Origin: Marsupella aquatica | Lineage: Eukaryota > Plantae > Marchantiophyta | Length of the DNA stretch: 64,000 nucleotides | Reading direction: 5' to 3' | Assembly: GCA_973895155.1 (NCBI GenBank) | Contig: OZ316897.1 | Span: 19,230,168-19,294,167, forward strand | Shown: piece after piece, positions 13,341 through 56,600 of the stretch | Layout of the letters: every line of letters starts with the position of its first letter | How positions within the stretch are numbered: the stretch's first letter is position 1 | Made by a program: the position numbers and the translations under genes | The notes under the pieces: generated by a model | What the model was told of the DNA's origin: nothing | Database searches by the model: none | The model's input: only the letters and a program-made list of their open reading frames with translations

Positions 13341-13379
13341 CGCCCGTCCTGCTCTCTGTACATCCAACAAATTTTGAAA

Positions 13380-13615
13380 CCAATTCTCTGAATGAGGCCT
13401 CTGGAGATCAAGCCTGTTACTGAACCTCTGCGAGTCAATTGCCACAGTCAATTATCCGAATGAAGCCACGAAAGAAATTCTCTGGGAATCAAGTCCGTTC
13501 ATGAAGCTCGGCGCATCAATTGCCCACAGCCAATTATCTGAATCAAGCCACGGAAGAAATTATCGGCGAATCGAGCCCGCCCGTGACTGAAGCTCTGTGC
13601 ATCAATTGCCACATT
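13380..13615. repeat. degenerate ~70-80 bp tandem repeat (about 3 copies) upstream of the DTW gene
   Basis: CAATT(A/C)TC(T/C)GAAT(G/C)A(A/G)GCC...GAA(C/G)CTC...CAATTGCC(C)ACA repeated three times. Confidence 0.65.
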
Positions 13616-19283: not shown

Positions 19284-19427
19284 AGTTCTTATTGTTAGTA
19301 TATACTTGAATAAAATTGTCAGTGATGAAAGCTTAATACATCTCACCTCAGTCTTAGCCAGTTGATGCTATCAACTAGTACAGTCTAAGTTTGGTGTGAG
19401 CTACCCTAGGACTAAGATTGATTTTGG

Positions 19428-20909
19428 ATGGGGAAGTGGGGGGGTTCCCAAGCAGATGCGTCTTGTCAATCGGATATTGAAAGGGAGATTACTTCGAGCT
19501 CAACTCCAAAATCTACAAGAAGTAAGGATGAAGAATCTGACCCCCTAAGTGAAGAAACAAGTACACATACAACAGAGCAAGATATAGCAAAGCCTGCTTG
19601 GCGATATAAGTACGAGGAAATTAAAAAGGCAACTGATGATTTTGCAAAGTCTCTTAAAATTGGGAAAGGTCCTATAGGAGCATTTTACAAGGGAATGCTA
19701 CCCAAATCCAACATCAATATAGCAGTGAAACTAATAACTCACAGCACAAGACAAAGACCGTCCCTTACTGAGATTTCTACTTTAAGCCAAATTGAGCATC
19801 TAAATCTTGTAAAGTTACTTGGCTATTGCAAGAATAGTTTAGGGAAGTATTATGTTATTTATGAGTGGATACCCGGAGGGAGTCTAGACAAGGCTCTATT
19901 TGAGAGAAAGCCAGCTCAGACCATTGTACCTTGGACAAAACGATTTGCCATACTTAGGGGGGTGGCACGAGCTTTGCAGCATCTTCATGAAAATGGAGAG
20001 AAGCCAATCATCCATAGAAATGTGAAAGCAAGTATTTCAAGCAAGTGGATTTCTAAGAATGACATGGAAAGTTCAACATCAACAGCTAACACAATTGCAA
20101 GTTCCAACAACTGCATTGGAATTTCTAAGCGTGACATGGAAAGTTCAACATCAACAGCTAACACAGTTGCAAGTTCAAACAACTGTATTGGAATTTTTAA
20201 GCGTGACATGGAAACCTCAACATCCATGGATTTTCATACTACTAGTGGGACCTTTATCGAAACGGACAACAAAATGGATAGTAGTTCTGCTACATTGAAA
20301 AACCTGAGTGTAGTATCAAAGTTTTTTCAAGAAGGCCATTCTAGGCAAGTAATTGAAAATCCCAAGGAGGAGCTCAGAGAACCATCAAGGGGCCAATCCG
20401 TGAGGAGCTTGCTACCATTTGAAATACAGCAAACTCTTACATTTAACACTCTCTTTAAGACATTTGAAGAAGAAGCACAAGACAAAGAAACATTACTGTC
20501 ACCAAAAGTTATCCATCCCAGCGTTGATGATAATTCGAGTACATCTTCCTCAAGTTGCTCCCTTCAAAGTTGTCCTTTGTTAACACAAATGAATAATTAT
20601 GACAGTGTTGAGATGGAGACAAGGAATAATATTCTTATTCCCGATCCTTATTATAGAAAGCTATCAACTAATTCTTCCCCATACAATATTTTGCCTCCTA
20701 TGCTAATAGAGATTTCAACTACTCTTCCTGCCAGTCAGTTTGTTCCACCGTTGGAGTGGGAAGATTCAATTTGCACTTGCCCTGAAGAGTCATACCCAAA
20801 GGAAAAAGAACAAGAGGAACAATCAATGCTACAACATGATTCTGCACCAAAAAAACAATCCAGTTTTCTTTCGTCCCCTCCGCCTCCTTCCTTCGGTGAC
20901 AATCTATGA
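19428..20909 (+). CDS. receptor-kinase N-lobe to subdomain VIb followed by a non-kinase Ser-rich tail; probable second exon of the lectin receptor
   Basis: YEEIKKATDDF, IGKGPIGAFYKG, IAVKLI, EISTLSQIEHLNLVKLLGYC, YEWIPGGSLDKALF, RGVARALQHLHE, IIHRNVKAS; no DFG or later subdomains. The exact splice to the upstream ORF is unresolved. Confidence 0.8.
   Translation: MGKWGGSQADASCQSDIEREITSSSTPKSTRSKDEESDPLSEETSTHTTEQDIAKPAWRYKYEEIKKATDDFAKSLKIGKGPIGAFYKGMLPKSNINIAVKLITHSTRQRPSLTEISTLSQIEHLNLVKLLGYCKNSLGKYYVIYEWIPGGSLDKALFERKPAQTIVPWTKRFAILRGVARALQHLHENGEKPIIHRNVKASISSKWISKNDMESSTSTANTIASSNNCIGISKRDMESSTSTANTVASSNNCIGIFKRDMETSTSMDFHTTSGTFIETDNKMDSSSATLKNLSVVSKFFQEGHSRQVIENPKEELREPSRGQSVRSLLPFEIQQTLTFNTLFKTFEEEAQDKETLLSPKVIHPSVDDNSSTSSSSCSLQSCPLLTQMNNYDSVEMETRNNILIPDPYYRKLSTNSSPYNILPPMLIEISTTLPASQFVPPLEWEDSICTCPEESYPKEKEQEEQSMLQHDSAPKKQSSFLSSPPPPSFGDNL
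20048..20225 (+). repeat. 72-bp (24-aa) coding tandem repeat, about 2.5 copies
   Basis: ISKNDMESSTSTANTIASSNNCIG / ISKRDMESSTSTANTVASSNNCIG / IFKRDMETSTS. Confidence 0.9.
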
Positions 20910-24581: not shown

Positions 24582-27235
24582 TCATGTCTCCACCATGGGC
24601 TCCGGACCATTGGACTCGACATGTGAACAAGTACCAGAGTGTGCTGGTATCACAGAGTTGAACAAAATGTCCTTGATGACCTGAACAGCAGAAGCGAAGT
24701 TAGCAATAGCGTGAATAAATCAAATGAGAACTGGAAGTGGTCACGGTGGACGTTCTACATTTAGATAATCAGATCCACCTAGAACAGGCTGACACCTGCA
24801 TCATAAAACACTTGACAGTAGATCCGTTATAGAAGGGATGCAACAGTAGACAGCCAAACCTCACTGGATAACAAAACCAACCTGAGACATGAGTCCATGC
24901 ACTTGCTCCACTGTGATTTTGGAACTATCACGGGTTATCTTTGCCAGTTGAGACTCTTCCTGTGGGTCACAAGCAGAGAAATTTAGGAGTGTGAGGAAGA
25001 AGTAGGTTGCAACAAGGTCTAGAAGTTTGTAGTAGGATCGGACTACTCTGGATACCCAATAAAATAGAACATGCTGGTATAGAATTCGGTCTAACACAAT
25101 GCGGTCATAATCCATCTTTAGGGCTGTGATCCCCATAAATACATGAACAAGACCTGGCAACATTTCATCTACTGAATGAGAATAGATAGGTCATATGCTT
25201 ACCTCCTTCTTCCGCTGTGGAGGCATGAAGAATCCTCCAATGCGACCTGAATGAGCTAGATGTGTCTCTGCTTGTTCTAACTTCTCAGCTGCAAATATTG
25301 TAGGAGATAATTTTGTTAGTGCCTCGACATTATCTTGGCAACAAGCAAAAGGGCTTACAAATCAAACCAGAAACTGCACCGTGAACGAAATTGAGTTAGC
25401 TTAAATTGAAAAAGGGCCCCGGAAGAGATCATTTCTCAAAGTCTATCACGATGCTCACCAAGATCTGAAACTTGCCCAGCTACGTAGTCCCGGTTGCCAA
25501 GAAGTGGTGAAGAAGATAGAGTGTTCACCCAGTACTTGTTCCAAAGAAGATCCAACAAGTGCGAATCCAGTGATGACTTGAAATAGGTAATGTCCAGTGA
25601 ATAATACTGCAAAAGTAATCCAGCATGAGTGTCTATATTGGCCACAAAATAAGAATGTGTACTAATCACACACTAGTCGACAAAATTTAGGGTAAACAGT
25701 GGATGACCCTACCTCTGTTGTGTGAGTACTTAGAGAGAATTGGTCCCGGGAACTTTTACGCTTTGTTATTTAACCTACAAATTTCAGTCTATCCATTCCC
25801 ACCGTTTAATTTTATGAAGTGCTGGGTAAGTTGGATGGAGACTGTGTAAAGATTATATTCCAAGAAACTTGCTCAGCCTGGCTGGCGGTAGACTTAGTAA
25901 CTCAAAAGAGTTTGACGGTCCTGCGCATTTCTCGATTGCACTTGTCGTGCGTGTTAACCAAGTTGTCAGGTTCAAAACTTCAGAGATAGATGAGTCAAGT
26001 ACCTGCTTGTAGTGAACTCCAAAGTCTTCGATTTTGTTCAAAGGAATGGTCTGGTACTCTGAGGGTGGCTCGTCCGGAGGTTTGTAACCCTGTGGATATG
26101 TCCGAAATGCACCGATTTCGACCTTCCCCGCTGACACTGTTCTAGTAGGATCAATGACAACAGCCAAGAAAGGCTCTTGATACTGTTGATTCAGCATCTG
26201 TGTGGATACATCGATTCCTGACAGCCAGCAACCATAGCCGGGATGTGAGTGGTACCAACCCACCACATTTTCTAGCCTCCCAACCTGCTTTCACCAGCCA
26301 AACCTGTCAACACTTCTGAACGGCGGCTGAGGAAAACAACAAAGTTCCTTCTGCTCCATCAATACAAACTGAAAACCTAATTTTCTCCCAAGGGGATACC
26401 AGAGTCTTCCAGACGGGCCGTACCTACAACGGCATGTGACCGAACAAAATAACAATTGCCCATAAACCAGGTTGACTCTGTCTATTGAAATTCTATCAGT
26501 TCCAGGAGAGATTCCCTGACCTGCTTGTTTGTTTGCGCATATTGAACCATATACTCGTAAGCATCTGCTTGTGCATTCACACGCGTCTCAGTACCCTCGA
26601 CTGGCAAAGCAAACGCATCCTGTGTGGGAGAGCGAAGTCAGTATCCATTGGCCACTAGTGCAATTGTGAGTGACTTCTAAATCAGTCCAAAATAACATTA
26701 CCAGTAAGAGTACCTGTGCAGGATTTCTTCATGCAGGACGTTCCAGCCAGGAAACTCTTCAAAGTCTTTATGATTAGGGCACCAAAATTTCAACTTCTCC
26801 GTATAAGTTCACTTCCAGGAAACCCTAAAGCTAGGAATCTTCCCAGAAATTGAAAGGGTTTAGAAATTTAGAACTGCATGTTTTCCCTGGACAGAAACGG
26901 CTTTCTCATACCATAATAATGATCGTATCCCCGTCGGTCTTCCCCTGCATGAGCCCCATGACTTCAATTGTTCCACCTGATCTAGCGTGAACGACCATCT
27001 TCAACAGTGCCAATGCGGAGATTTTCACGTTCTTGAAAAAGTGGGGATCCCTGGTCCAGGGCTTTTGCTGCAGAAAGGCATTCTGCGCAGCCTCATCGTA
27101 CTGGTACATGGCGTCTGCGTCCAACGCCACACTGTTCGCCGGTTTACTGGACGACGAGGGGGTCTCCATGATTATGTTGTTCTCCAGCTCCCATGTCTGG
27201 CGCGCTATTGCCGCGGACGACGTCGACGCGTCCAT
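24582..27235 (-). CDS. CSN5: COP9 signalosome subunit 5 (JAB1/MPN+ deneddylase), 7 exons, 371 aa
   Basis: Exons 27235-26912, 26619-26521, 26284-26003, 25606-25459, 25288-25203, 24959-24882 and 24680-24582 splice in frame through GT-AG introns. Motifs [62 protein letters not shown]. Confidence 0.98.
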
Positions 27236-29853
27236 CGTCCGCCCCTGGTCCCCGTTCCTTCGTCTCGGTCCCGAATCCCCGTCGACTCGCCTAAATCTCA
27301 CTCTCAACGCCTAAAAAACACGACCCTCACTACTGTCCTCGAGCGCGATGTCCCTCCCAAGTAATTCCCCTGTTCTGTCGAACACATTGGCCGAAGCTTT
27401 CTTTCCACTCAGCCACTCAGGATTTCTGCATTCTACTGAGGATTTCTCCTCTCCTCTCACTCAGTGACTCAGCTGGCAATCTGAACTCGCGATAGCTGCC
27501 AATCGACTGTCGTTCTTTACAATTTATCACACTGCAAAAGCACAAAAAGCAAAACTCGGGAAAGCTTCTACTCTCGTTCTGTCCATCACCCTTCCAAAAC
27601 ACAAAAGAGAGGATACTTTGGACTCACAACAAAAACCAAAACTGGGGAGAGTTTCGACTCATTTGCACATTTAATTAAAGATACTTCTGATTTGCGCATT
27701 TAGTTTTAAAGATACTGGATTTGAACCATTAGCTCTTGCACTTTTTCATTAGATGTGTACCATTAGTTCATCACACTATTGCAGATTCTATTTACTCTTT
27801 TTAGATAATAGCCTGTTGGTTGGTGTTAGTGTTTGTACTCTTTGGGCCTCTTTTGCTTTCCCTTCATTGTACTTGATTTTGCCCTTTTGTAAAACAAATA
27901 AATTATGTAAAAAAAACTCATCTGTCTATGTACCACTATATCACACTACGGGTGAACAAAAAGCAAATATAGGATAAAGGATCCCAAAGGTAGGAGACCT
28001 CAAAACCTTCTGTTTCACATAGGTTTTATGCACCTGGGATGCTGCAGGCCTGAGCGCGGGTCAAATTGCGGTTTCCAAAGAACTGGTCCGCCATTGACTT
28101 AGGCGGTCTATCCACGGGTGTCTGCAATAAAAGTTGGTCCATGAGGATATGTCAGTGCTCTGCAAGAATTATTAGGGCCCTTCAGAAAAACAACCAAATT
28201 CATGAATTAGAAAATGATTTTGAGTTAACCGGCAGGTGGGTGTTGTGACTTGTCTCAAACCAAAAACCCCATAGGTAAAGTTTGCCAGAAAGTTGGGTTT
28301 TAGTAAGGGAGCAGGTGACTGAAAGATGGGGAGCAACAGGTTTGAGAAACCCTAATGGTGGGGAGAAACAAGAAAAAATAACCCCAAGACGACAAACGAG
28401 CCAAAAAGCCTGAGAGCATACAATGAAAGGGACAAAGCAAGGAAAATAACCCTAAGACTACCAAAGAGATTAAAAGCCAGGGAGTTCCCATTCAAGAACA
28501 AAATAACTAGAGTACAACCCTCCTCAGCAGCAAATTGAGAAGCTGGGTAAAGCTATGGAGTACACTGTGTGTATGGCTACACTTTCATGCTAATTTCCTA
28601 CCGGAACCTTACCCACCATTGCACTATTTTGCCATCCTAGTTCAAACAAAAAAGCAATTATGCAGATTTTGATACTGATGACAAACTATTTTCAAGTGCT
28701 TGAAACCTGTAAAAAAATTCTGTGATGGAAATGTTAAGAATATTGTAAGTATCTTGATGTGAAAAGTGACTTGTCTGTGTTCAGGGTTATTATTCTCCTA
28801 CTGAAACACGCAAATAATAATTTGGCCTTGGTTATTTCCTAGAATGAACAATAATGAATGTTTTGCCCAGGACCAGCTAACAAGGATGGCACTGTGGTAC
28901 CAAATATTACAGCACAAACAGGGTGACAATATCCAAAAGACAAGAGACCGAATAAAGTTTTCAGTAATCTGTGGAATTGCAGGCGAGTGAAACCCAGTTC
29001 TGCCTAGAACTGAAGGTGAAACTTGTCACTATCTTTTGGCTTTGTAAAGGGGGTAAAACTGAGGTGAAACTTGTTTTTGCTGCTGGCAAGGCCACTGACC
29101 AAATGTCACATCTAGTTTTCCGAGGGACTCAACACACTTGTCGGGGGGCCAGGCACATCTACATTGTTCACCTTAATTAGCATTATGCAAGAATTAGTGT
29201 TAGTATAAAGTTAGTATTACTAATACCAATTTTGGTAAAAAGTAATCTTGAGTCAAAAGTAACAGTAATTCTTGTGAATTTTGAAAATAGTTTTTCCCCC
29301 CTATTTTTCCACTCTTGAGACCACAGTAACACTAATTTCATGTGCATGGAAATACTCTTAGCACAAAATTATTGTGACTAAAACCAATTTGCCAATACAT
29401 CTTGAGAATTTACACTCTCAAACTAGTGTTAGTCACACTACTTATGGTGAAATTGTAATTTTAGTTTTATGAGGGACTCAACACAGACTGTGGGATCTTC
29501 TACGTGCATTTGCCTAGCATCCCACAGTTTTGGGGCATTTCTGGAGAACACAGTAAGAACTCTCTAATGAAGGGGAGAAAACAAGGGAGACCAGAGAGCC
29601 AAAAGACCAAAGAGTACCACACAACTGAACTTCTACAATGCTCCTCCCTCGAAGGCTGAAGACCCAAGAGCAATATGAAGGAAAGGAAACACTCCCCCAA
29701 GGTTGGATTATATCACACCAGAACAGGAAAGGGAGAGGAAGGCGGGAGGAATGTGCTGACTGCCTTCATGGCCTCCTTCCAAGACCAAGACGGGGCCTGC
29801 CTGCTTCCGTGCAGGCCTCAGCACTTTCCAACATATCTATATAATTTGTGACC

Positions 29854-32975: not shown

Positions 32976-33582
32976 CTACAACTGCAAAACCTGCAAAGTA
33001 GCACGGTGTCTTGAGAAACTCTCCAAAGGAATCACTTTGGTAAAAGCATCAGCGGGATTGAGCTTTCCATCAATCTTGACTAGCTCAAAAGTTTTATCAG
33101 ACACTACTTGCCTGATAAAATGGTACCTGATATCAATGTGCTTCACCCTGCTATCCATCACCTGGTTAGCAGCCAAGTGAAGAGCACTCTGACTATCACA
33201 GTTTAGAGTCATTTTGCCATGCTCTAAACCCATCTCCACGATCAACTTGTCCAACCAAATTGCTTCCTTTGCAGCTTCTGCTGCTGCAACATACTCTGCT
33301 TCTGTAGTAGACTGAGATATGCACTTCTACAAGGTAGATTTCCAACTGATACATCCTCCTCCAAGAGTGTATACAAACCCAGTTGTAGACCTCCTTGTAT
33401 CCAGACAGCCTCCATAGCCAGAATCTACATAGCCAACGAACGTTCTATCTGATCTGTTATCAAATAGTAATCCATAGTCCTCTGTTCCCTTCAGATACCT
33501 GAGAATCCACTTCACAGCTTCCCAATGTACCTTCCCTGGATTTGACATGAATCTGCTAACCTTGCCCATCGCTAGGGCCAAG
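32976..33582 (-). pseudogene. copia RT C-terminus and RNase H remnant
   Basis: HWEAVKWILRYLKGT, GYVDS, STTGFVYTLGGGCISWKS, KHIDIRYHFIRQ, NPADAFTK; one in-frame stop at 33327. Confidence 0.92.
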
Positions 33583-34367
33583 CACTACAACACTATCGGC
33601 CGGTTTTGCGAAGACAATCTCATCGCAACTAACAAGCCCCTGATTTTCATAATTCTGGCTATTGCGAACATACGCGCATCGCACCCCCTTCGCACTTTGC
33701 GAACCTAATAACTTCGCACGTGGACCATCGCAACGGCATCGCAACATCATGACAAACTGAGAAGCTGAGAGGTTCGCAATATTCAATACTTCTGCGATCC
33801 ATTATACGTCGCATAAGGTTCGCAAACATACACGCACACGTCCCACGCGGGCGTCAATATTTGAGACGGATTTACCATCGCATCATATTTGCGATTGATA
33901 CTGGTTCAATTGTTTTGATGGGGATTGTATGACAAAGAGCGATACCGGTGATTTCAGAAGTTTGTGAACGGTTGCGATTAGGAAAGTGCGATCCTAGAAG
34001 TATCACAAAAACCCGACATATTTGGATCTGAAGTTCTGAAGTTAATTGACTCAAAAAGTGCGACGCCTTGGGGTTAATATTGTGCGATGGGAATGAGTTC
34101 TTAAAGGGTTCGCAAAATTATGATCACACAGGATTCAATACATTATTTGCGAGGGGTTTTCCTTGGAACCCAATGTGGAAGGCAAAATTGTTGTTTTATA
34201 AAATGGAAAAGCATGAACAAAATGATAGGGCTTCAAAGAACCCTATACATGGACAAGAGGGGGGAAATATCTGATGCTAGGTCCGCCCTTCTAAACCTAT
34301 GCTGCCTCTTCCTACCCTAAGCTCCGGCATGACAAGTCACTCTCATGCATGTATCTCTACAAAATAA

Positions 34368-36413
34368 CTAGAATGGGCTCTTGCGGCTCCTCTTGGTTGG
34401 CTTCTTGGCTGGCTTCTTGCCCTTATCCTTCCGGGGATCCTATTGGTGACGGGTGCGTGATGGCCGTCGGCGCTCCTGCTCTTGCTCCTGCTGCTCCTCT
34501 GGCTCCTCCTGCCCCTCCTGCTCCTCCTCCTCATCCTCAGGGTCCTCCTCCTCCCCCTGGTCATCAACGTGTGCTGATGACACACGACTACCACCACTAC
34601 CACGGTGGGAAGAACCTACCTCACGACTACTCCCCCCCGAGCACCACTAGTACCAGGAGTAGCCCCCTCATCGTCATCACTACTGGTCACATCAGCACCC
34701 GACCCCTCAGGCTCATCCGAATCCTGCATCCATTACATATCATTAGTTTCCGCAAGACATAAAGGGTCACTCACAATGTTTGCATGCTAATCATATGGTT
34801 CACACTTAGACACTTACAGTAGCCAACTCGGCATCTACCATCGCAAAGAGGTACTTTCGTCCATGCTCTATCGCCACCTCAATATGCTTTTTTGATATCT
34901 TCCTTTTGTACCTACGATACTGCCATGCATAAAACCAATTAAAATTGGTTAAATTTGCCCTTAAGCATACCCTATAGCCACAAGTGACGCCTAAATCCTC
35001 AACTACTAAACATGACCCAAAAAAATTTTAAAATTCAAATTTGCGAACCTATAAGCATAGCAACTTGCGAACCACCTTTTTTTGCGAAGGCGTTGCGATG
35101 GAGTTTGTGATGCGCATTTGTTCGCAAAGGCATCGGAAAATTGAAATGGAAAAAGTCTATGATAGACTTTGCGAGGGGTTTGCGAACAAATACGCATCGC
35201 AACACCTTCGCAAACTGTGTTCCCGAGAGTTTTTAAAAATTTGCCAGAAATTCTAAGTGTCAGAGTTGCCCTAAACTAGTAACCAAGCAAGCATGCACAA
35301 CAGCAAGAACCTTCGGGGATGTCATTCACTTGCATTGCACAACTCTGAAAGGAATAGAGAGGTTAGGGAGGAGCAAGAGGCACTCACAAAGTGTGACTTG
35401 AGGCCAGGGAGCCCGCCTTGACCCAACTTGTGGACTGGATTGGGGGTGGATTTCACTCGTTTGGCTGCATCTGTGAAACGCTTGGGTGGCTTTCCCTCCT
35501 GGTCGGCCACCTTCTGCATCTCAGCTACCTTCTGCTCAAGTGGCTTCAGGTCATGGTCAGGGGGGAGCTTCCCGGCCTCCTTTGCTTTCAAGGCTCGATC
35601 TAGATTGCCCTTCCACTCTTCCAACTCGTGAGCTGCCTTAATTTGCACCTCAATCTTGTAAAACGAATTCCAGATGTCCTCGGTGAAGTGGAGGGGTCTG
35701 CGCAAGTTCCTGTATGATCTCAAGTCTTTCAGGTGGGCTCTAATCTTCATCCTGTCATGGTATCGCATTTGAGACATAGAATTTGAAATCTTATCTGCCA
35801 ACCATTGCTCATCTATGTCAGGCCCATTGCGAAATGCATCCTTGATTTGGTTGATGACCCTCTTTCGCTCTGCCTTCTCAATCTTCCCCCACTGCATGCC
35901 TCGTGAGAAATTGCTTGTGATAATCTGCTTGATTGTGCTCTTAGCCCCTGCATATGCTAGCTCAGTTGGAGTCCCACTCATCTCCAAGGCAATGAATGGA
36001 AGTTTTTTTCTTGCTTCCTCTTTCTGACGTTGCTCCTCCCTCTGTTTTCGAATTGAATCTCTCTCCTCTCTTCTCTTCTGCTTCTCTAGGGCTTGAGGAG
36101 AGGCAACTCCCGACTTAGTTCTTTCCTCTCTCTTCCTTTTTTTCTCTCTAGCCTTCTCTTCAGCTGCGGCCCTCTCCTCCCCCTCTCTAGTAGCTTGTCC
36201 TGCTACAATCCCAGTTTGCAAAACCTGTCCAAGAATGGCACTCAAAGAGGCAAGCTCTGCTGGAGAATTGAGATTCACTTCTCCCAATTGTGCAGCACTG
36301 AGATGTTGGGCCACTAAGTCTGCCCAGGCATTCTTCTCTTTCTCTGGATTTCCCCCATTGCCACTACCACTACCACTACCACCTTGCCCTCCACTCCCCT
36401 CACCGGTAGCCAT
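34368..36413 (-). CDS. CACTA ORF2 (TnpA-like accessory protein), 3 exons, last exon damaged
   Basis: Exons 36413-35388, 34919-34818 and 34723-34368 splice at phase 0. Charged helical N-terminal part, W..I.K..RK..I..I.D.F segment, HKLGQGG motif, acidic tail and basic NLS-like end. A 1-bp frameshift in the G-run near 34632-34638 and a TAG near 34440. TnpA identity is inferred from context. Confidence 0.7.
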
Positions 36414-36759
36414 AGCTCCCCTCTCTCACAGTCTCCCTCGTACTGTTGCGCGCGCCCCGGCCCTTCTCGTCTCGCTCAAAAACTGAAATGAGCCCGAATG
36501 CGAGCTCCCGCCGATGTTTACGCCGTTTAAAAATGGGTTTGCGATGACATACGCATGGGAAACTGCGAAGCCCGCGCCCTCGCAAATAGTCTCGCAACTT
36601 GCGAGGCACTTCCGAATCTATTCTCTTCGTAAAGCCATCACAACCCGCAGAAGACCCAAAAAATTGTTCTCGGCCTCTGTTTTTGCGAAGCAAGTGCGAA
36701 GGTCGTAGGTTCGCAAAAATATTCTCTAACTTGTGAAATAATTTGCGAGGCAGGTCTTA

Positions 36760-37700
36760 TCGGTTTAGGGTTGGAAAACACTTTGGGGTGTCAAACGGCT
36801 ATTAAGGTTTGTCAAACGACATTTAAGGTATGTTAAGTGCCCATAAGTTAACATGGAAGGGGTGTCAATGGATGTTTGGGTTGTAAGGATAACTAGAATA
36901 TAAGTTAACAAAGGTTTGGGTTTAATTAAAGGTTAGGTTTATATTTGGTTTTAATCTAGGAGTATTTGGTTTAATTAAGGGGGTTAAAACTTGGGTTAGG
37001 TTGGAATAAAAGGGTTGGGTTTAAATTAATGGGTTTGGCTTAGGGTTCAAGGTAGAGGTTTGCATTAGGTTGTGAGTAATTACAGGGGTTGGGTTTGGTT
37101 TTAGTTGAGGGGTTGAATTGTGGTTGTTTTTTAAAGGGATTGGGTTTGGTTTTTAGTTGGGGGGTTTAATTGTGGTTTTTTTAAAGGGGTTGGGTTTCTA
37201 ATGTAAGTGTTTGGGTTGGGGTGTAACATGATATAGGGTTGGATTTGGTTCTAATTGAGGGGGTACAATTTTTGCTTAAGTTTTAAAAAAGGGCCTCAAT
37301 TTAGGGGTTAGGGTGAAGTTTAGAATAACTATAGGGGTGGGGGTTGGCCTATATAGGTAAAGTAAGGTGTAGATAGGATAAGAGTTTTATATGTAATTGG
37401 GGGATTTGGGTTGGGTTTAGGGTAAAGGTTTGAAATTTTAATGAGGGATTTGGGTATTGGTTAGGATAAGGGTAAGGGTTTAGGGTGCTTGAGGGATTTG
37501 GGTTAGGTTTTAATGAAGGGTTTCATTTCATGGTTTGGGTTTAGGGTAGGTGTTTGGGTTTAGGGTAAAGGTTTGAATTTTTAATGAGGGATTTAGGTAT
37601 TGGTTAGGATAAGGGTAAGGGTTTAGGGTGATTGAGGGATTTGGGTTAGGTTTTAATGAAGGGTTTCATTTCATGGTTTGGGTTTAGGGTAGGGTTTGGG
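36760..37700 (+). repeat. G/T-skewed low-complexity spacer with telomere-like GGGTTTAGGG motifs and a 143-bp direct repeat
   Basis: Very few C on the + strand; TTTAGGG near 36763, 37300, 37416, 37478, 37540, 37559, 37622 and 37683; duplication with period 143 (about 37411 and 37554). Confidence 0.85.
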
Positions 37701-38134
37701 TTACTTATATTTCTTTGTCTATCTCATTAACATGGAGAGGAAAACTCTTTGGCGTTGTAGGGCACTTCCCCATGTTTTTTAAAGTTTTGGCTAATGCATG
37801 ATAATGCCTTGCGAGAGCCCGGGCATCTGAAAGGTATAACATTTTCTCATGCATTTCTAGTCATTGCTGTAAATATGGAGGGTTATAATCTATCATCCTT
37901 TTTTTCTGGTTCACCATAAGGCATGGCTTAATTCATTGTATATTGGCAGATTTTCCCCTCCTTCCAGATTTGGTTCATGAAATTTGAGCCACAAGATCCG
38001 TCAAGGCATTGCTAAGCCCGGGTCTCATAAAGGTATTTTTCTGTCAATTCTTTTTAATATGTTTAGGTAGGGATTATCAATGATGGTTTTGGTGAAGTTT
38101 TTACTAATCGCCTTCCAATTGCTATACTTGTCAG

Positions 38135-39296
38135 ATGTCTTCATCCTCTACAACTTCCACCACATCAGATTCCTCTTCCAATGAAGAAAGTCATCCTCCT
38201 CCTCAACCTGAACCAACCGTACGTCGACCTAGTGGTCCACCACGCCAACTTTGTGGTTGTAAAAAATGTATGGGGATGGTTGTCCAAAAGTCATATGTAT
38301 GTGCGGAGCACATTGCTCGATATGGCCAACATCGAGGTCTTACACCGGGAGCTTCTTCATCCCGTATGGTGAGTTGTAAACTTACTGTGATTTCCATTTT
38401 ATTTTGTAAATCTTGCTAGGTAGCATAAAATAAAATTTGGGAGGTTCATCACACTCACTTGGTTCCATTTCTTCCTATAGGTATCCAGTAGGCCTACACC
38501 CACTACACCAACACCCTATGTTCCCTCACAAGGAGTTCTAGATGCTATAGGCTCGGCACTTTCACAAGCTTTTCGTTTAGTGGCAGCAGGGCAAGGTAGT
38601 GTTGGGACAATTAAGGGTGACGGTATTGTTACAAGAGGGAAAAAAAAGTCAAAAAGACAGCCTAGAGGGGAAGTGGATCAGTACACTTGTAGGGTTGATG
38701 GTAGATGGGGCCCTTGTACCTTCACAAGGAAGTGTGTTCCTATCATAAAGGATTGGAATCCGGAGTGCCTTGGTTTGCCATGTGATATAACCTATGGTGA
38801 GGAGATAGAAGTTTGGGGAAGACGTTGGGTTGTCAAGAGTTCGACCCTAGGGGAGAGGCATGGGTATGGGATTTTCTCTTGTCAGGACATTATTGTGGAT
38901 GATATGGGTGGAAAAGGGCGCTCTTCAGATGGACCAACGTTGTTCCCGTATGGTGGACCCATTTACAAGAGGAGACATTGGAACATGATCCTTGTTCAAC
39001 ACCCTGAGTGGAAGACTTATGCATTGGACATGGATACTTTTGATGGTTGCACCAGAAAGTATTGTGACCAGCGTATAATTGATGGTGATCCCATCCGTAG
39101 TGGGAATATTGCCGGTTTCATCAACAGTACTGTGGGGACCCGGCCTAAGCGTAGGAAAAACTGTGAATGGGTTTTTGTTGATGGTCCCCCTCCAGCCCCT
39201 TATGGGCAGAGATATCATCATGACCATTGTCTAGTTGTAGCTAATAGGACCATTCTGGTTGGAGAGGAGTTGTTTACACATTATGAATGGGATTAG
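38135..39296 (+). CDS. transposase-associated Cys/His module fused to a SET domain (predicted 349-aa splice product)
   Basis: Exon 38135-38368 (QLCGCKKC...CAEHIARYG; donor GTGAGT, phase 0) plus exon 38481-39296 (acceptor TTCCTATAG, phase 0, no stops). SET motifs: VKSSTLGERHGYGIFSCQDI, YGGPIY, YALDM, IIDGD...GNIAGFINS, NCEWV, VVANRTILVGEELFTHY. Confidence 0.85.
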
Positions 39297-39446
39297 GATT
39301 ACTTTAGGAACATGTATTATACGTTCATCGTATGTGAACGTATGTTTTGTAATGACATGTTCTTTTTATATTGTTAATAATATGTTTCGAGCACTACTAT
39401 ATTTGGCGTTAATTTCATTGTGAATACTTTATTGTATTTTCTATAG

Positions 39447-42400
39447 AATGTGCGGCCTAGTCAAGATATGTTGCCAAGGAGGTTGAGAGCTACATATCAA
39501 GAAATGGGCTTGCCACAAGACGGGGAAACATCATCAGCAGATTCCTCATCAAGTGACAATGATAATGACAGTCCAGATGAAGGGGCACCTCGGACAGATT
39601 ATGAGGTCATGCAAGACCAAGAGTCAGCCATGGATGACTTCATGACAGATTGGTTTGGTGTAGACATTGGTGGTGAAGGAGGTGTCCCACCCAATGAAGG
39701 AGACCCTCCACCAAATGTTGCACATGATCCAAGGCCTCAACGTACACCTGAAGGACAAAAACAATGGGAAGAAGCTGAGGCACATGCTAGAACACCTATT
39801 TATGGGGGTGCTCGTTTGAATAGACTATCTGCCATCTTGGCATTGATGAATCTTCATGCAAAACACAAGGCAAGCAATACGCTACTATCGGATTTGTTTG
39901 CAATTTGCCATGATCTCTTGTTACCTAGTGAAAATCTGTTGCCAGGAACTTGGAAGGAGGCAAAGAGGGTTCTATCATCCATTGGCATGGAATACCATAT
40001 CATTCATGCTTGTGTGAATGACTGCATTCTCTATCATGAGACCAATGCCAGCGCAACTGAGTGTCCAATTTGTCAAGAGCCTCGATATGAAACCAACATG
40101 TTGACCTCAAAGGTGCCTAGAAAAGCTGTTCGTTGGTTTCCTATTATTCCTCGATTGTTGCACATGTACCGATGTTCTGACTTGGCAGAATTGATGGTAT
40201 GGCATAAGACACATCGATTAGAGGCCGGTGTCATGCGGTTGCCAGTTGATTCCCCTGCTCACAAGCATGTGGAGTCACAATGGCCAGAATTTGCACGTGA
40301 CCCTCGTCATGTGAGGTTGGGGTTGGCATCAGATGGGGTAAGCCCACACTCCCTTGGAGGGAAAGGGCGCCCTACTTCGGTTTGGCCGGTGGTTGTTATG
40401 AATTACAACCTTCCCCCATGGTTGTCCATGAAAAAGGGATTCTTATTGCTATCATTGATTATCCCAGGTCCATCTAAGGTAAAAAACATGGACACCTACT
40501 TGGCGCTCTTGGTTGGGGAACTCCATAAATTATGGGGGGGTGTATGGGCATATGATGGTCGGACAACTATAGGAGGGTTACCACGTGTCTTCCAATTGAA
40601 GGGAATCATTATGTGGACCATGCATGACTATCCAGGTGAGTGGTATGGATTTGTATTTTTTTCATGTATTGGAGATCAAGTTTGTTTGGAAGGAAGTCCC
40701 TCTTTAATTCTATGTACATGAACTTTTCAATTCCTTTGACTCTAATTGAGAATGTTATTTTGTGAGCAGGGTTTGGGTTTGTTTCTGGGTTCCAAACTCA
40801 AGGGTACAAGGCATGCTCCACTTGTGGTCCAAGCCTTCACGATATGGCCAAGTACTCAAAATGGCTGCACAAGATAATCTACCTTGGTCATACCAAGTTT
40901 CTTCCACTTGGGCATCACATGAGGTCTGACCCCCTTTTGTTTTCAGACTTTGACATGATCAATGGTGATGAGCGTGAGATACCTGACCGCACAACATTTT
41001 CGTATTGGAAATCCATAGCTGATAGGGTGGCAGACCCTGAAGATGCCATGGGATTTGATGGTAGTGGATTGACAAGGTGGGGTATACTGGCCACTTTGCC
41101 CTATTGGCCTGAGTTGAAGATTCATCACTTGTTAGACCCCATGCATATAGAGGGAAATGTTGGGAAGGCTTTGATCAAGCACTTAATTTTATGGGGAAAA
41201 GAACATTAATTTTAGGGAGGCATGCCAGGATCTAGAACGACATCCAGATGTATGGATAACAGTTGATGAATCCACAGGGATGGAACATCGTCCTTCAGCT
41301 CCATGGGTTTTGAGTGTTGGTGAAAGAAGAGAGTTTCGACAACGCATAGGGCAGATCATGCGGTTTCCTACAGGCTATGGTGCCAATCTACGTAAGGCTT
41401 TTGGGATGGAGGACAGTCATAAATGGCCAATGTATCTCAAGACACATGACTATCATCGTTTACTACAACATATACTTCCTGTGGCAATCATAGGTTTGGG
41501 GAGTGAAGAAGTGCAAGACGCCCTTTGGTCACTAGGCACTTTGTTGAGATGGATATGCTCAAAGGAAATATATGAAGAAGAGATACCACGGATGGAGGTA
41601 TTGGCAGCAGAGGTGGTATGCAAGTTGGAGAAGGCCCTCCCTCCTTCCTTCTTTGATTGTCAGATGCATCTTCTCGTTCATCTTGTGAGGGAGGTTGCCA
41701 TTGCCGGTCCGGTGCATTGTAGGTGGATGTATTGGCTGGAAAGGTATATGGCCGTGTTAAAGGCTTATGTACGGAACCGTGCACGAGTGGAGGGGAGCAT
41801 GGCAACTGGATACTTGGCAGCTGAGAGTATGTTTTATTGTAGTAACATCTTAGCTACCATTGATCCTAGTTTTCCACGCACTTGGATGGAAGAGAGGGAA
41901 GTGGAGGAGGACCGTTTAACAAGTGCAAAAAAAACACGCTTACTAACCGCAGTGGAGTTGACACAGGTTAGTACTTTCATGTTGAGTAACAGCAATGTGA
42001 TGGAAGATTGGAGAGAGTTTTATGAGGATGCAAAGAGGGAGAGTCGTCGCCCAAGGATCTTTCCAAAGTTCCTTGAGTATATGAAGGAGAAAGTACTTCA
42101 GTTGGATGCTATGGTGGCCCAAGGTGAGAATGTATCACATTTTCCAGATATGACTCCTGAGGTTCGAACAATTGTTCATGGTCCTTTAAGACTTGTTCAA
42201 ACCAGAACAGCAATGTGGACACAAGGGAGGCATTTCAGGATTTCTGACCTTGATGAGAAGAGGGGAAGAACTTTTGATTGTGGAGTTCAAGGGCAGTTCA
42301 TGCAAGATTCACAAAGTAGCCGTCATGACACTAATGTGATCAGAGATGTGGTGCCTCACTATGGGAAGATTGAGGAGATCTTGATCATATCCTATGATGC

Positions 42401-42722
42401 CGATTCCAAATTTGAAGAGTATGTCTTCAAGTGTAAGTGGTTCAAAATTCACCTGGTTGGTGATAATCGCACGGTACTTCTTGATGAGTGTGGGTTTACT
42501 CGACTGAAGACATCAGCAACTAGCTTTCAACCATCTCATTGGCAAACATCTGAACCATTTACATTCCCAAGTCACCTTGAGCAGTGTTTCTATATTCCGT
42601 ACCCACCAGACCTAGAGTGGTCAGTTGTTATACCGTATGTGCCACGGTCCCGTTCCATTATCTCGGAAAAACCTGACGTTATTATTGTGTCAAATGGAGG
42701 CGAGGATGAGGACCAGGTTTGA
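39447..42722 (+). pseudogene. CACTA TnpD transposase core (Transposase_21, DUF4218 and DUF4216-type regions), one frameshift
   Basis: IHACVNDCILY, CPICQEPRY, FPIIPRL, LGLASDGVSP, YNLPPWL, LIIPGP, TMHDYP|intron 40636-40769|GFGFVSG, LDPMHIEGNV, KTHDYHRLLQ, HLLVHL, GPVHCRWMY..ER, YGKIEEI, FKCKWF. A net +1 frameshift (probably a 4-bp insertion) near 41186-41190. The acceptor at 39446/39447 is in phase with exon 38135-38368. Confidence 0.95.
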
Positions 42723-43465
42723 TGCACTAGTAGTAAAACTTGTTGTGGGCCCAGAATTTGACCCTAAACTAACTATCATGGTTTTATTTATATTAACATA
42801 TTACTTTTCTTCTTTTGTTTTACAAACACTTAATTGGACTTTGAAATTTCATCTCACTGTTATATATGCAACCTTAGCCGTTTCCAAAGCTATCCTCATG
42901 CATGCCACCTTTTTGAAAACCCTAGCTGTAACCTAAACACATGCATTCTCCATCTTGTAAAGAAACTCTCTCAAACATTTCCATTCTACAAAATTTTCAA
43001 ACAACTCTCTTTGCAAAACATTTTCAAGCTTGTCAAGAAGCAACTTCTGAACACTTTGTGAATAACACACCATCGGTAATTGTGATGCCAATGTGTTCTC
43101 AACTTTGCGAATCAACTGGATTCGGTAACTTGCGACTATTTATGCTTCACAATATTGTGCGAAGCTAATAGGTTCACAATATATATTTGAGTACATTATT
43201 ATCGCTAAATTATGAAACAAAAGAGATCCAAATGCAGTCGCGATGGTCGCGGATCCACAAATACTTTGCGAGACGAATAGTATCTGAAAGAGTTGCGAAT
43301 TCAATCCAATCTCCAACAAATTGCGAGGTATTTAGCTTCACAACACCTGTGAGCATGGTTTATTGTGATGCGTGTTTGATCACAAAATATCTGGAGTCGA
43401 TGACATCGCAAGACCATCCCAGCGTCAAAAAAAAGCTTCGCAAAAGGGGCCAATATGTAGTAGTG

Positions 43466-45808
43466 AAGTCAGGCCTAGTACAAGTCATCAAATACATCAG
43501 ACTGCCTACTGCCTTCTCATAAGGAATCTTAGCCATCAGACCTTTCTCCACAGCATCCGTAGGAGAGAAAGCCGATGATAACTTGAAATGTGAAGCTAAA
43601 GGAATACTCACTGGCTTATAGTTCTCCATGTTGAATCGTGCAAGTACTTTCTTCGCATACTGGCCTTGACTCAAGCACAACTGTCCAGTCTCAGAGTTCC
43701 TAAAAATCTCCATCCCTAAGATTCTCTTGGCCTTACCAAGATCCTTCATCTTGAATTCAGCACTCAATTTCAGAATGTCAACCTTAGATTGATCTTTAGC
43801 CACAATCAACATGTCATCCACATAGATAACCAGAATGATGAAACCAAATACATCATTCTTGACTGATTTTGTATACACACAAGGATCATACATCATCCTT
43901 GTAAAACCTTAAGCAAGCATGAAATCATCAAACCGCTTGTTTCACTGTCTGGGAGACTGCTTCAATCCATACAAGGACTTGAGCAATCTGCAAACTAAGT
44001 TCTCTTGGCCCTTCTTCATAAAGCCTAGTGGCTGTCTCATGAAGATCAGCTCTTCCAAGTTGCCATAGAGAAAAGCAGTAACAACATCCATCTGATCCAT
44101 CACCAGACCAAAAAACACAACAAGCTGACACAAGATCCGAATTGTGGAATACTTAGCAACCGGTGAAAAGACCTCATTGTAATCCACTCCTTTGTCCTGA
44201 GTGAATCCCTTGGCAACAAGCCTTGCCTTGTAGATCTTGTCTCCACCCTCTGAAGGACTATCCTTCAACTTGTAAATCCACTTGCTGTCTACCACTTGCT
44301 GACCTCTTGGAAGCTCCACCAGTTCCCATGTTTTGTTGTCACTCAAAGATTACAACTCCCTTTGCATTGCTGCATTCCACTCATGCTTCTGCTCTGAAGC
44401 ACAAGCCTCACTATACGAAGAAGGCTCTCCTTCTTCCAAGATCAAAGCCATATCATCTTCATCAGGTGCAATGTCAATATCATCTAGCTTACTTAGATGA
44501 GTCTGCCCATTGACCATACCTGGTAGGAGCTCTAGTAGAACGACTGGAAGTTCTTCTAGTAGATGACTCAGGCTGATCTATTGCTGCTGCTGGTTGAATT
44601 TGAGGTACCCTAGCAACAATCTGCTCCTCTTGTTCCATCACAGGAACCAGCTCCAAGCCCGGAGCTTCTCCATCTCTCCTATCATGAACTGCATCATGAC
44701 TAATCTCCCCCTCAACCCGGTCCGGGATGGGAGATTTCCCCTTGTCAGTATGGGAGTCCTGAGAACTCTCCCCCTCCTTTGATGATCTGGATTCATTAAA
44801 GGACACATCTCTACTGACAATTAGCTTACAGCTTACTGGATCCCATAACCTATAACCCTTCACACCTTTCTGATAACCAAGGAAAATGCACTTCTTCGAC
44901 TTGGACTCCAGCTTGGATCGAAGCTGGGAAGGTGTAAGCACATAAGCATCACATCCAAAAATCCTCACATGTGAGTAATCTGCTGGACGCCCGTACCTCA
45001 TTTCAAATGGCGTCTTGAATCCAATAGAACTAGATGGAGAAAAATTTACCAAATAAGCTGCAGTGTTGACAGCTTCAGCCCAAAACTCATGTGGTAAGCA
45101 TGATTGACTCAACATACTCCTCGAGCGGTCCAATAGTGTTCGGTTGAGTCTCTCAGAAACACCATTCTGCTGAGGAGTATAACTTGTTGTGAGATGGCGG
45201 GTAATCCCCTACTTCTTACAATACGTTCCAAATTCCGCGGAACTGTATTCACCGCCGTTATCCGATTGAAGATATCTCACCTTATTACCAGTCTGATTCT
45301 CAACTTGGGCTTTCCACTCCTTAAAAGTGGCAAAAACATCAGACTTATTGTGTAGAAAGTATATCCACACATACCTTGAGTAATCGTCTATGAACATGAC
45401 ATAGTATAACCGTCCAGAATGTGAGGGAGTAGGGGCTGGACCCCACACATCACTATGTACATACTCAAGTACCTCCTTGCTGGTGTGAGTTCCAACTCCG
45501 AAGGGTTTCCTGTGCTACTTCCCTAGCACACAGTGCTCACAAAATTCCAACTTACAAGATTGCAAATTAGAAAGTAATCCTTTCTTCTGAAGAATAACCA
45601 AACCTTTTTCACTCATGTGGCCCAAACAGAAGTGCCACAGCCAGGCCGTCTCCTCATGAGATAAGGTTACATTGGCTTCATCACAAACTACACTGCCCTC
45701 CAAAATGTATAGATTGCTATGTCTCTTTCCCTTCAATACAACTTTAGTACCAGTTGAAACCTGAAGGACACCATTAGCAGAGCTCCACTGATGGCCATTT
45801 GCTTCTAA
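43466..45808 (-). pseudogene. copia GAG-pre-integrase, integrase and RT remnant
   Basis: WHFCLGHMSEKG...CEHCVLGK, FIDDYSRYVW, SDNGGEY, YKARLVAKGFTQ, IYVDDML; several stops and frameshifts. Confidence 0.93.
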
Positions 45809-53683: not shown

Positions 53684-56600
53684 ATGGAGGAACAGGAGAT
53701 CTACGACCTTCTGATTGTCACGGATGCGACATCCTCGATGACCGAGTACTTAGAATCCCTGCACACTTCTCTGCCTCAAATTATTTCCATCTCTGCGCTT
53801 ACAGGGTGTTTTTCTCACATCGGGCTTCTTGCCTATCGCGACTATTGCGACGAGACCTTGCTGGAATGGTCCGGGTGGCTGGAGCAATCAAGTGTCGTGC
53901 AAGACCAACCGGATCTTGTCGCCAAAGCCAAGTCAATTGCGCCACAGGGTGGTGGTGACTATCCAGAAGCTACGAAGACGGCACTGGCCAAGGCATATGA
54001 AGTTATGAGGCCCGAGGCTACGACGATTCTTTTGTTCTACACCGATGCTTCTCCTCATGCAGCATTCAATGGGTCCAATGGGTCCCCTCCCTGGGGGTGG
54101 TGTGAACTATCATCGAATCATGCACAAGAGAAGGAAGCCCTCTCGGACCCGAAGTCATATGGCGGCTTTGGGCCAAGCTTTATCGATTGGGTCTCCGCCT
54201 GTAAGACCCTGAGGAGCGGAGAAAAGAAAGTGCAAGTTTTTTGCATGCTCGAGTCATCAATGCCATGGCAGTACGCCGGGCATTACAATTACCTGTGTAC
54301 CCTGAGCCGCGGATCATGCATCATCCTGAAAGACTCGAAACCGGCGACTGTTTCTAAGGTGACAGTCGAGGTATTATTAGCATGGATGGGAGTAGAAAAG
54401 GCAGGTACATCTGATGCTACCAACTGTACAGAGCTGCCAGCAACTCTGTGCCGGTACCTCGACATTGGAAACATCCAGAAGATAAAGGATGAGGATGATC
54501 CAATTGCTAATCGGTTCTTCTCAACAACCTCTTCTAATGGAAGCACTGCGACTAAGAGCATTTCCGCAAACATTGCGAGTGTTGCTATTACACCAGAAGT
54601 CCTGAAAAAGCATTTGCCAAAAAAGAGAACACCAGTCTCCGACTTTGGCAAATCCTACACAAGTGATGCAGCTTATCGGGTCATCGTAGTTGAGCATCTT
54701 AAGAAGATCATTGACAGCGACGTCCGTGCCATAGCTGTGAATCCTGTCTTCGGCAGTGTTTGGAGGGCTGCTTGCAATGACAGGACCCGCGAGTCACACA
54801 ACGACCTCATCTCAGCATTTGGGCTTCAGGTCGAGAGGATAAGCAATCCAGACGACAAAGCACAAATGAAAGCTTGGCTTGAGGAGTCATACAATTATAC
54901 GGCGGAAGTCAGAGACAAGCTCAATGCGGTGCCCGAAAACGAACGATTCCCTTGTGTCTGTCTGGATCCTACCCTCAACTTCGTGCGCTCGGGCGACGAT
55001 ATGCCCAATGGGGATGAGGATAACAGGCCAATCACCGCATTCCGAAGAGACGAGCTGCTGGAGATAGGCCGATCTTGCGACTTCAAAATCCTTCGACGCT
55101 TGGGTCGCGTCCTTACTAGATTAACATATATCGAAAGTCCTGAAGACATCCCCGAGCACATTGCAGGAACAACTGACGACGAAATTCCCAAGATTCCGAT
55201 GGCTCTGGCATCCAAGAAACATGGAGGTCAATTCTGGAGAATATTGTTGCACGTCATCGTTCCAGGAACAATGCTGTCGGCTCGACCTGCAGCTCTCCTG
55301 GCGGCTTTGAGTCTGCGACTTGGTGTGGAACCTCTCACTCAAGCAGCAGAACGCGAGATGTTTAGGTGGCGTAATAGGTGGAATGACGTTGAAGTGCCTG
55401 AAATTTGGAGTGTCAGTAGCTTGTCTCTTCTCTTGGATGCAGATAAAGTGTACCGCCAAAGGCAGCAGGATCTCGGCACTACTAATGCGGATGGAGATGC
55501 ACAACAGAAGCATTTCAGTTTGCTAAAAGAAGCTGACAGGTATTTGTTTGAGCATCTTGTCACCTACAAAATGCTGGAGCTAAATCTCGATACGACTTTG
55601 ACTGCGCAATTAGGATGGACACCAGACAAGACAATTGTTCCGATCGGTCCTTTAGCTTTCTGTCGATCTTGTCAATACCCACGGTCCGTGACTATCATGG
55701 GTCCCAGTAGGAAATGTGGTCTCTGTCTTTACACAACCTATGAATCTCCGGAAGTCCGGGAGAAGTTCATAGAAAGCTGCGTCTCGAAGGAAGATGGCGA
55801 GCTGACTCCAGCGACATGGGTGGAATGTTCGGTCATAACTTGCCGAGCTCAGTATGTGGTCTACAATCGCAAGGCGCTGAATGTCCGCCCAAAATGCCAC
55901 TACTGTCGTTCACAATGCAGTATGCCAGCAGCAGAGAGAAGCAAGTATGCAGCACCTTGGGTCGAATGCACAGTGTGTCTGAACCGCATGATTTGGCCAG
56001 AAACATATCGGTCTTCCTCTTTCTCCAAATCCGCTTTCACATGTCCACCATGTACATCAGGCCGCACAACCATTGTCGAACTCGAGACAACTGCCAAGAA
56101 GATATCTGCAGAGAACACGACATCATGGCTTATCCTTGACTCCGAAAAACCGGACGAATGTCCATTCACGAACCGTTCAGTCTACCACACCATCTCTACA
56201 ATCGGTTCGGATTCCTTTCTCCGAAGGATAAGTCTGTTTCCTCCAGCCAAGCATCCGCTGACTGTCAAGGGAAAGCTCATCCGTAACTCAATTTCGCTGA
56301 TATCAAACCTCCATGATATTATCTCCCGACGGGAAACTGAACGTGCCCCCTGCTCGTTGTGCTTCTCAATCTTCCATCCGACAGCCCTCAGTGCTGCTTG
56401 CGGCCGCCGCGGCTGTCTCCAACGCATCTGCCGCAGCTGTCTATCGGGATGGTATGGCCTCAATTCCGTAGGTCGCATTATCAACACCGCTGCTCTGTCG
56501 TGTCCATTTTGTCGACGCAAGCCTGCAGGGCGCAGGCTGGCCAAGTACGGGATGGGGATCCATGCCGTCGGGAACTTGGCTGTGGCAGTGCAAGACCAGG

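Follow-up and report, generated by a model that had tools for sequence, protein, structure and literature searches.

A CACTA transposon of a liverwort carries a putative SET methyltransferase exon within its transposase gene

Introduction

In maize Spm, alternative splicing of a single unit yields TnpA to TnpD, and TnpD can bind to TnpA, as set out in the available text of PMC1636069. The element analysed here resembles maize En/Spm, as described there, in its CACTA termini, its 3-bp duplication, its subterminal repeats and its several proteins from a spliced unit, and it carries an En/Spm-like transposase with the Transposase_21, DUF4218 and DUF4216 domains. Unlike maize En/Spm, its predicted alternative product is a SET protein, and its ORF2 lies on the opposite strand and lacks a TnpA family match.

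SET-bearing transposons are already known. In the accessible part of bioRxiv 10.1101/2025.02.11.637652, the accessory gene PAG2 of red-algal Plavaka elements (EnSpm superfamily) joins an N6-adenine methylase to a SET domain, and Helitron captures of SET domains are described; the accessible part of PMC12730594 reports SET genes of histone-methyltransferase type in HarbingerS and in Phytophthora MuDR families. HarbingerS, Phytophthora MuDR and Helitrons are, like our element, DNA transposons with a SET domain, but they belong to other superfamilies and hosts, and there the domain is carried in accessory genes. Plavaka PAG2 shares with our element a long-conserved SET domain on a CACTA-superfamily transposon, with a putative function in both. 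As described, PAG2 is a separate fused gene within a three-gene cassette, whereas the SET exon studied here shares the first exon of TnpD. We found no PAG1, PAG3 or adenine-methylase gene among the open reading frames of our element, and its SET exon matched only PF00856.

A first-pass annotation of this DNA, made from the sequence alone, knew of no described SET-bearing plant CACTA family. This stands for land plants: our full-text searches listed none, although a repeat library or supplement may hold an earlier mention, and none is described in the available portions of PMC11982613 and 10.1101/2022.10.24.513474. It does not extend to red algae, where Plavaka, of the EnSpm/CACTA superfamily, has a SET gene. 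What is new here is that a bryophyte CACTA element has a SET exon, old and under selection, built into its transposase gene.

VANC of VANDAL elements and TnpA of Arabidopsis Spm3 are transposon factors thought to act on the chromatin of their own families, as we propose for this element. In the partial accounts available, both are sequence-specific DNA-binding proteins with demonstrated hypomethylation, whereas our candidate is a predicted enzyme. Transposon marking differs among bryophytes: in Marchantia H3K27me3 covers many elements, and in Physcomitrium the mark is mostly H3K9me2 (10.1101/2022.10.24.513474, in its available text), so the target of a bryophyte transposon SET domain would be informative.

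A complete CACTA element

The window is a stretch of 64,000 nucleotides from the liverwort Marsupella aquatica (contig OZ316897.1). It contains the following element boundaries:

33580..33582: AAG target-site duplication on the left
33583..43465: complete CACTA (En/Spm) element of 9,883 bp, defined by termini, AAG duplication and empty-site joint
33583..34152: left terminal repeat CACTACAAC and subterminal TTGCGA/TCGCAA cluster
43105..43465: terminal repeat GTAGTAGTG at the right end, with its subterminal motif cluster
43466..43468: AAG target-site duplication on the right

The element reads AAG CACTACAAC ... GTAGTAGTG AAG, with CACTA...TAGTG terminal inverted repeats. The annotation had placed a CACTA element with these repeats and duplication at 33583-43465, and the empty site agreed: contigs from four of four public runs contained a joint from 33579 to 43466, with three shared letters. 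Having these inverted repeats, the 3-bp duplication with its empty site and a TnpD gene, this is a CACTA/En-Spm element. A reverse-transcriptase/RNase H reading frame resumes on either side of it, and by its motifs we take the interrupted host frame to be the RT region of a Copia-type LTR retrotransposon.

The hexamer TTGCGA/TCGCAA occurs 38 times in the 9.9-kb element, compared with 15 times in the remaining 54 kb, and the hexamer clusters sit at matching places in L026, a complete copy of 9,893 bp from a divergent lineage with its own ACA/ACA duplication. Two internal clusters (35040-35210 and 36539-36750), also at matching places in L026, flank the main exon of ORF2 and are candidate binding sites of an element protein. 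Between ORF2 and exon 1 lies a G/T-rich block (36800-37750) with seven TTTAGGG words and a 143-nt tandem duplication. L026 has just two TTTAGGG words over its whole length, so the block appears to be lineage-specific; it is possibly promoter-related.

Contigs assembled from the public runs covered 30 of 30 bins. Run X1 gave 716 contigs, of which 206 were in the identity class of 99% and above, 190 at 95-99%, 196 at 90-95% and 124 below 90%. Among eight near-identical long pieces listed, seven had depths of 541-620 along the element; one of these seven, which reaches from exon 1 into the SET exon, had a depth of 604. Read depth here does not equal copy number. These depths and identity classes fit a repeated family with several subfamilies, of which the SET exon is a regular part.

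A predicted SET domain

The SET exon and its landmarks are as follows:

38481..39296 (+): SET exon with its own stop, a basic linker followed by the SET core (open reading frame, Pfam, splice-site comparison)
38679..39293 (+): folded core of 205 aa, a family-specific N-terminal flank followed by the SET domain (AlphaFold2, Foldseek, conservation table)
38862-38870 (+): GxG motif
38949 (+): Tyr of the PYGG motif
39015-39020 (+): TY motif
39123-39128 (+): Asn-Ser at the position of the NHS motif
39282 (+): Tyr at the catalytic position

The exon is open through 271 codons and contains the SET motifs that the annotation had quoted, in the quoted order. One of them needs correction: in 'NC', the Asn is found in 61 of 61 family rows but the Cys in 15 of 61, so the cysteine is not conserved. 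The linker is basic and includes KKKSKR, a possible nuclear signal. A profile search proposed in the annotation gave a PF00856 match of 24.7 bits, above the curated cut-off of 22.4 (E 3.3e-5), and 46 of 63 family rows matched this profile at E <= 0.01. None of 20,000 shuffles of the protein matched the motif pattern, which is a weak control, the pattern having been fitted to the real sequence.

Structure prediction, the other check proposed, also returned a SET fold. Given a 63-row alignment, AlphaFold2 modelled the 205-residue core with a pLDDT of 93.1 and a pTM of 0.88; a model from 28 close rows had a pLDDT of 41.9. Foldseek gave 276 matches in the PDB at E <= 0.001, and all those among the matches listed were SET proteins. 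SET8 (E 2.9e-7) and LegAS4 (6.4e-7) were the best, followed by MLL1 and G9a. These matches were moderate (TM 0.40-0.50 by query length, 14-22% identity), and scores were about equal for enzymes of H4K20, H3K14, H3K4 and H3K9, so they name no substrate. Viral SET proteins scored similarly (19 at E <= 0.001). The ESM Atlas gave scores of 0.97 for a 50-member streptophyte SET cluster, 0.96 for an unnamed cluster, 0.96 for a giant-virus SET cluster and 0.95 for a haptophyte SET cluster. SET8/KMT5A, MLL1, G9a and giant-virus SET proteins share the predicted fold, and small stand-alone viral SET proteins score alike; the window protein differs from all of these in its family-specific N-terminal flank and inserts. 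The model and the profile firmly support the prediction that the exon encodes a SET domain.

With a profile of the family, the best solved matches were two LegAS4 structures, 8SR6 (E 2.6e-5) and 5CZY (E 3e-5). A search of solved structures with the single SET protein found no SET match at E <= 10. Plant ATXR5/6 and the EZH2, MLL and SUV39 families are all represented in the PDB. That the single sequence retrieves no solved SET protein at this threshold makes it unlikely that the exon was passively taken from a canonical host gene.

Catalytic residues of the SET product

We tabulated conservation over 63 family rows, which reach down to about 25-30% identity. The GxG motif was conserved (58/61 and 61/61), as were the Asn at 39123 (56/63), a second Asn (61/61), the Tyr at 39018 (59/63) and the final Tyr (51/54). 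Other best-kept columns were a PY/F-x-G-x-x-Y block, DG and GxE. Thus GxG, the motif III Asn and the catalytic Tyr are present as in active SET lysine methyltransferases. The protein lacks the canonical NHS His, and it also lacks a post-SET segment, which in such enzymes completes the SAM pocket. The annotation had pointed to the missing His (INS in place of NHS); this is a family-wide trait, with Ser replacing His in 61 of 63 rows. It had also described the protein as ending right after the catalytic Tyr, and the end indeed lies three residues past it, with a median tail of five among 51 family rows. The SET protein contains no pre-SET or post-SET cysteine cluster. Two places after the final Tyr, presumably the channel-wall position of canonical enzymes, an aromatic residue recurs (Trp in 30/54). 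The residue at the Phe/Tyr-switch position is small (Thr, Ala, Val or Cys), and a small residue there would favour di- or trimethylation.

Legionella RomA/LegAS4 (8SR6, 5CZY and 8SWI) offers the most direct comparison for the missing parts. It has the same lack of a motif III His, aligned Tyr and Asn residues in the active site and a basic stretch before the SET domain. LegAS4 is an active H3K14 methyltransferase (PMC10653858 and bioRxiv 10.64898/2026.05.29.728679, each in the part available), and its motif III reads YINFS, without a His; the NHS His is therefore dispensable in at least one active enzyme. A catalytically dead allele of LegAS4 changes six residues, according to the available text of bioRxiv 10.64898/2026.05.29.728679. 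By a hand count in the printed alignment, with the numbering offset of PMC10653858, four of the six are identical in the window protein (Tyr135, Tyr159, Asn181 and Tyr220), Ser158 pairs with Thr, and Tyr231 falls past the protein's end. The two proteins are about 22% identical, and LegAS4, as far as that literature goes, needs a post-SET segment and ankyrin repeats, both of which the window protein lacks. The likeness implies neither descent from LegAS4 nor H3K14 specificity, and which residue is marked cannot be read from similarity.

On these residues, we consider it likely that the SET product is an active enzyme. The main objection is the absent post-SET tail, not the absent His. The objection gains weight from PMC10653858, whose available text describes the LegAS4 SET domain alone as inactive and poor at binding SAM, and it leads to an alternative in which the SET product has little or no catalytic activity and serves as a binder, gripping a histone tail or a host silencing protein, guiding the transposase or acting as a decoy for host methyltransferase partners. 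Besides the inactivity of the isolated LegAS4 domain, such a binder would account for a protein with no post-SET tail here and a short one across the family, and with a replaced NHS His. It would not be expected to keep GxG, the Asn and the catalytic Tyr among the best-kept columns of a very divergent family, as is found here, and the His is in any case dispensable in LegAS4. We regard a pure binder as somewhat unlikely.

Proposed role of the SET product

We tentatively favour the reading that this CACTA element uses its SET exon to make an alternatively spliced zinc-finger and SET protein, which would likely be a lysine methyltransferase acting on the chromatin of the element's own copies. 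The SET exon would be kept between exon 1 and the rest of the transposase gene, and exon 1 would be spliced to it as an alternative last exon to give a zinc-finger–SET protein. The zinc finger, common to this protein and TnpD, would direct the transposase in one product and the SET domain in the other to the element, perhaps through the ORF2 protein bound at the subterminal or internal TTGCGA repeats. We infer SAM-dependent catalysis, targeting to the element and a histone-lysine substrate at its own copies, with an anti-silencing or transposition-promoting outcome: the element might be kept open, expressed or mobile, or its cutting might be aided. A wider reading, in which an old and diverse group of moss and liverwort CACTA elements uses the finger to deliver either a transposase or a minimal SET enzyme of a distinct subfamily that writes a protective or non-canonical histone mark on the element's copies, is possible, if doubtful.

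An active product would probably have a chromatin target. It could instead methylate a non-histone protein and thereby tune transposition, the substrate being TnpD or the ORF2 protein of the element itself, or else a silencing factor of the host. SET enzymes with non-histone targets exist (PMC10653858, available text), lysine-rich stretches occur in ORF2 and in the SET linker, and the protein has no reader or post-SET domain that would point to nucleosomes. The top solved-structure matches are nevertheless all histone enzymes, though the PDB is biased that way, and the available parts of PMC12730594 and bioRxiv 10.1101/2025.02.11.637652 interpret the accessory enzymes of other transposons as modifiers of chromatin or DNA. 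A non-histone substrate seems unlikely to us.

On the wider reading, a land-plant transposon would be writing its own histone mark. The candidate is small (about 350 aa predicted, with a 205-aa core) and confidently modelled, and its hosts have tractable relatives, which makes the question of whether a transposon can write its own histone mark directly testable. An active SET enzyme lacking both the NHS His and a post-SET tail would also add to the chemistry known for this fold.

Splicing of the SET exon and neighbouring genes

The coding parts around the SET exon are:

38135..38368 (+): exon 1, with ATG, Ser-rich start, CxCxxC...H zinc-finger-like motif and phase-0 donor GTGAGT
39447..40635 (+): second coding exon of TnpD, opening at a phase-0 acceptor (TAG before AAT; PF02992, 132.8 bits)
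40770..42722 (+): last exon of TnpD, frameshifted near 41183 (tail of PF02992, PF13960, PF13952)
35322..36413 (-): main exon of ORF2, a coiled-coil-like stretch and a conserved domain
near 34818-34922 and 34440-34735 (-): further short exons of ORF2, likely (tblastx blocks)

Exon 1 matched PF13963 (Transpos_assoc) weakly (E 0.0069, 17 bits, under the cut-off of 27.7). The first-pass annotation began its feature at the start of exon 1 but did not recognise the zinc-finger start as one likely shared with TnpD. We predict that exon 1 is the common start of the SET protein and TnpD. Exon 1 closes with a phase-0 GT donor in the window, as it does in all 15 loci matched to its end. Among the 23 loci shown for the start of the SET exon, a phase-0 AG precedes it in 20 and AA in three; the SET codons run to a stop in the window and in each of the 20 loci shown. 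An AT-rich spacer follows (153 nt in the window, 139-150 nt in related loci), after which a second phase-0 acceptor opens TnpD at Asn-Ile/Val, with AG in 18 of 20 loci. The first Met of the SET exon is residue 142, past the GxG at 128, so translation of the whole domain needs exon 1. The public gene models P0001 and P0003, which are predictions, link exon 1 to SET. The simplest reading of these sites is two products, exon 1 plus SET (349 aa) and exon 1 plus TnpD with SET skipped. Alternative splicing of the SET exon as a last exon is very probable from these signals.

A single long protein with the SET domain inside a SET–transposase fusion is suggested by the automatic gene models P0027, P0078 and P0122, which join SET and TnpD, the second and third of them Riccia models at roughly 40% identity. 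These joined models lose parts of SET, however, and the recurrent stop, the AT-rich spacer and the fresh acceptor all argue against read-through; no phase-0 donor scoring at least 6/9 was found inside the window SET exon, and a search for longer forms found none, which is weak evidence. We consider such a fusion improbable.

Upstream, the stretch 37810-38134 holds two similar short blocks, each ending in AAAG before a GTAT donor (near 37832 and 38033), which are likely non-coding 5' exons.

The match of TnpD to PF13952 lies slightly under its cut-off. Loci L002, L013 and L026, compared with 41187-42722, hold about 150 nt of extra sequence near TnpD residue 62 that the window lineage lacks; this stretch is likely an intron. 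The main exon of ORF2 has 48-60% identical matches in related loci. ORF2 matched no Pfam family (best E 0.2), its best ESM Atlas score was 0.78, and a TnpA-like role can be suggested for it by analogy only.

Distribution of the family

Of 657 candidates from a protein search, 39 proved to be relatives; one was 31% identical and the other 38 were 52-80% identical, and the sources named were Calypogeia fissa and five Sphagnum species. An exhaustive protein search gave 91 clusters at E <= 0.001, and in the ten that we looked up the named members were Riccia sorocarpa and Calypogeia. A profile search yielded 115 matches among 7,244 candidates; all the source-named ones, a minority, were bryophytes. 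A 64-row tree groups the window protein with rows from Calypogeia and Sphagnum in a 14-row clade (support 100/99), where P0010 and the Calypogeia protein P0001 are its closest neighbours at moderate support. A large separate cluster at 27-31% identity (P0154, P0156, P0163 and their kin), on metagenome contigs of up to 65 kb, also has Asn-Ser.

The order ORF2, zinc-finger exon 1, SET and TnpD recurs in related loci. Among metagenome loci, 35 of 36 had a SET match. TnpD lay downstream of SET in 21 of 24 loci with room, and in the other three (L021, L030 and L031) the SET exon itself is cut off part-way; exon 1 lay upstream in 17 of 17 loci with room, and in 8 of 9 ORF2 was located upstream in the reverse orientation. 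Related loci come mostly from one recent family and count as about two lineages besides the window; L010 and L033 are probably the same insertion assembled twice, as are L030 and L031. The family's depth is independent of these recent loci, as P0078 and P0122 run SET into TnpD and the distant members P0046, P0053, P0074 and P0088 have a finger ahead of SET. CACTA SET exons annotated as 'SET domain-containing protein' inflate bryophyte SET gene counts.

Selection on the SET exon

Nei-Gojobori dN/dS of the SET core was 0.16-0.19 between the window and 14 loci, at dS 1.08-1.31; the 14 pairs are worth roughly two independent contrasts, and their dS is close to saturation. For TnpD the ratio was 0.11-0.13 against four loci (dS 1.26-1.31), and for ORF2 it was 0.12-0.19 against three. 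The similar dS of SET and TnpD fits their travelling as one unit. Comparing L005 with five main-group loci gave 0.28-0.34. Of 26 core variant sites listed for near relatives, taken from the best-supported 40 of 237 rows and two rows of another listing, 21 fell at third positions and 20 were synonymous. These comparisons of coding sequence support purifying selection on the SET exon, and the copy survey makes it a constant part of the CACTA family; the annotation had proposed both as checks. Almost certainly it is a dedicated gene of the element and not a one-off capture.

Within the recent group, pS was 0.057 and pN 0.044 over 78 pairs (pN/pS about 0.77), the decay expected of dead insertions, and the SET core was intact in only 7 of 20 related loci spanning it. 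The annotation had set an intact SET frame against damaged TnpD and ORF2 frames. The lesions are real: TnpD has four extra bases near 41183 compared with contigs of three of four runs, a spot across which related loci hold one frame, and ORF2 lacks one base at 34631, in its likely last exon, compared with four of four runs. Preferential retention of SET does not follow, because at the observed lesion rate 816 nt would escape with a chance of about 0.69.

Passive capture, in which a fragment of a host SET gene would sit in the element without serving it, finds precedent in Pack-CACTA elements that capture gene fragments (in the sources as available) and some encouragement in the recent pN/pS and the 13 of 20 broken SET cores. 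It is very improbable given the same placement in moss and liverwort elements, the low between-lineage dN/dS, source-named matches all from bryophytes and the failure of the single sequence to find a solved SET protein. The annotation had named two outcomes as counting against its own reading, absence of a SET fold and a neutral single-copy host fragment, and the evidence ran the other way on both. A near-identical, neutrally evolving fragment of a host gene confined to one lineage is largely ruled out by divergence, recurrence and dN/dS.

Other genes in the window

Outside the element, an intronless ORF of 1,130 aa (53684-57076, +) lies in a slightly GC-richer stretch and has weak Pfam matches to vWA (N-terminal) and IBR (C-terminal). 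The layout looks fungal-type, and the ORF may on that account be a transferred gene. Two long ORFs at 16476-20909 (+) contain a legume-lectin domain and a partial kinase domain; they also have a repeated segment and large inserts of low complexity, and together look like an odd L-type lectin receptor kinase-like gene. Ordinary host genes are represented by a DTW-domain protein (12387-13451, -) and a JAB1/CSN5-like protein (25853-27310, -).
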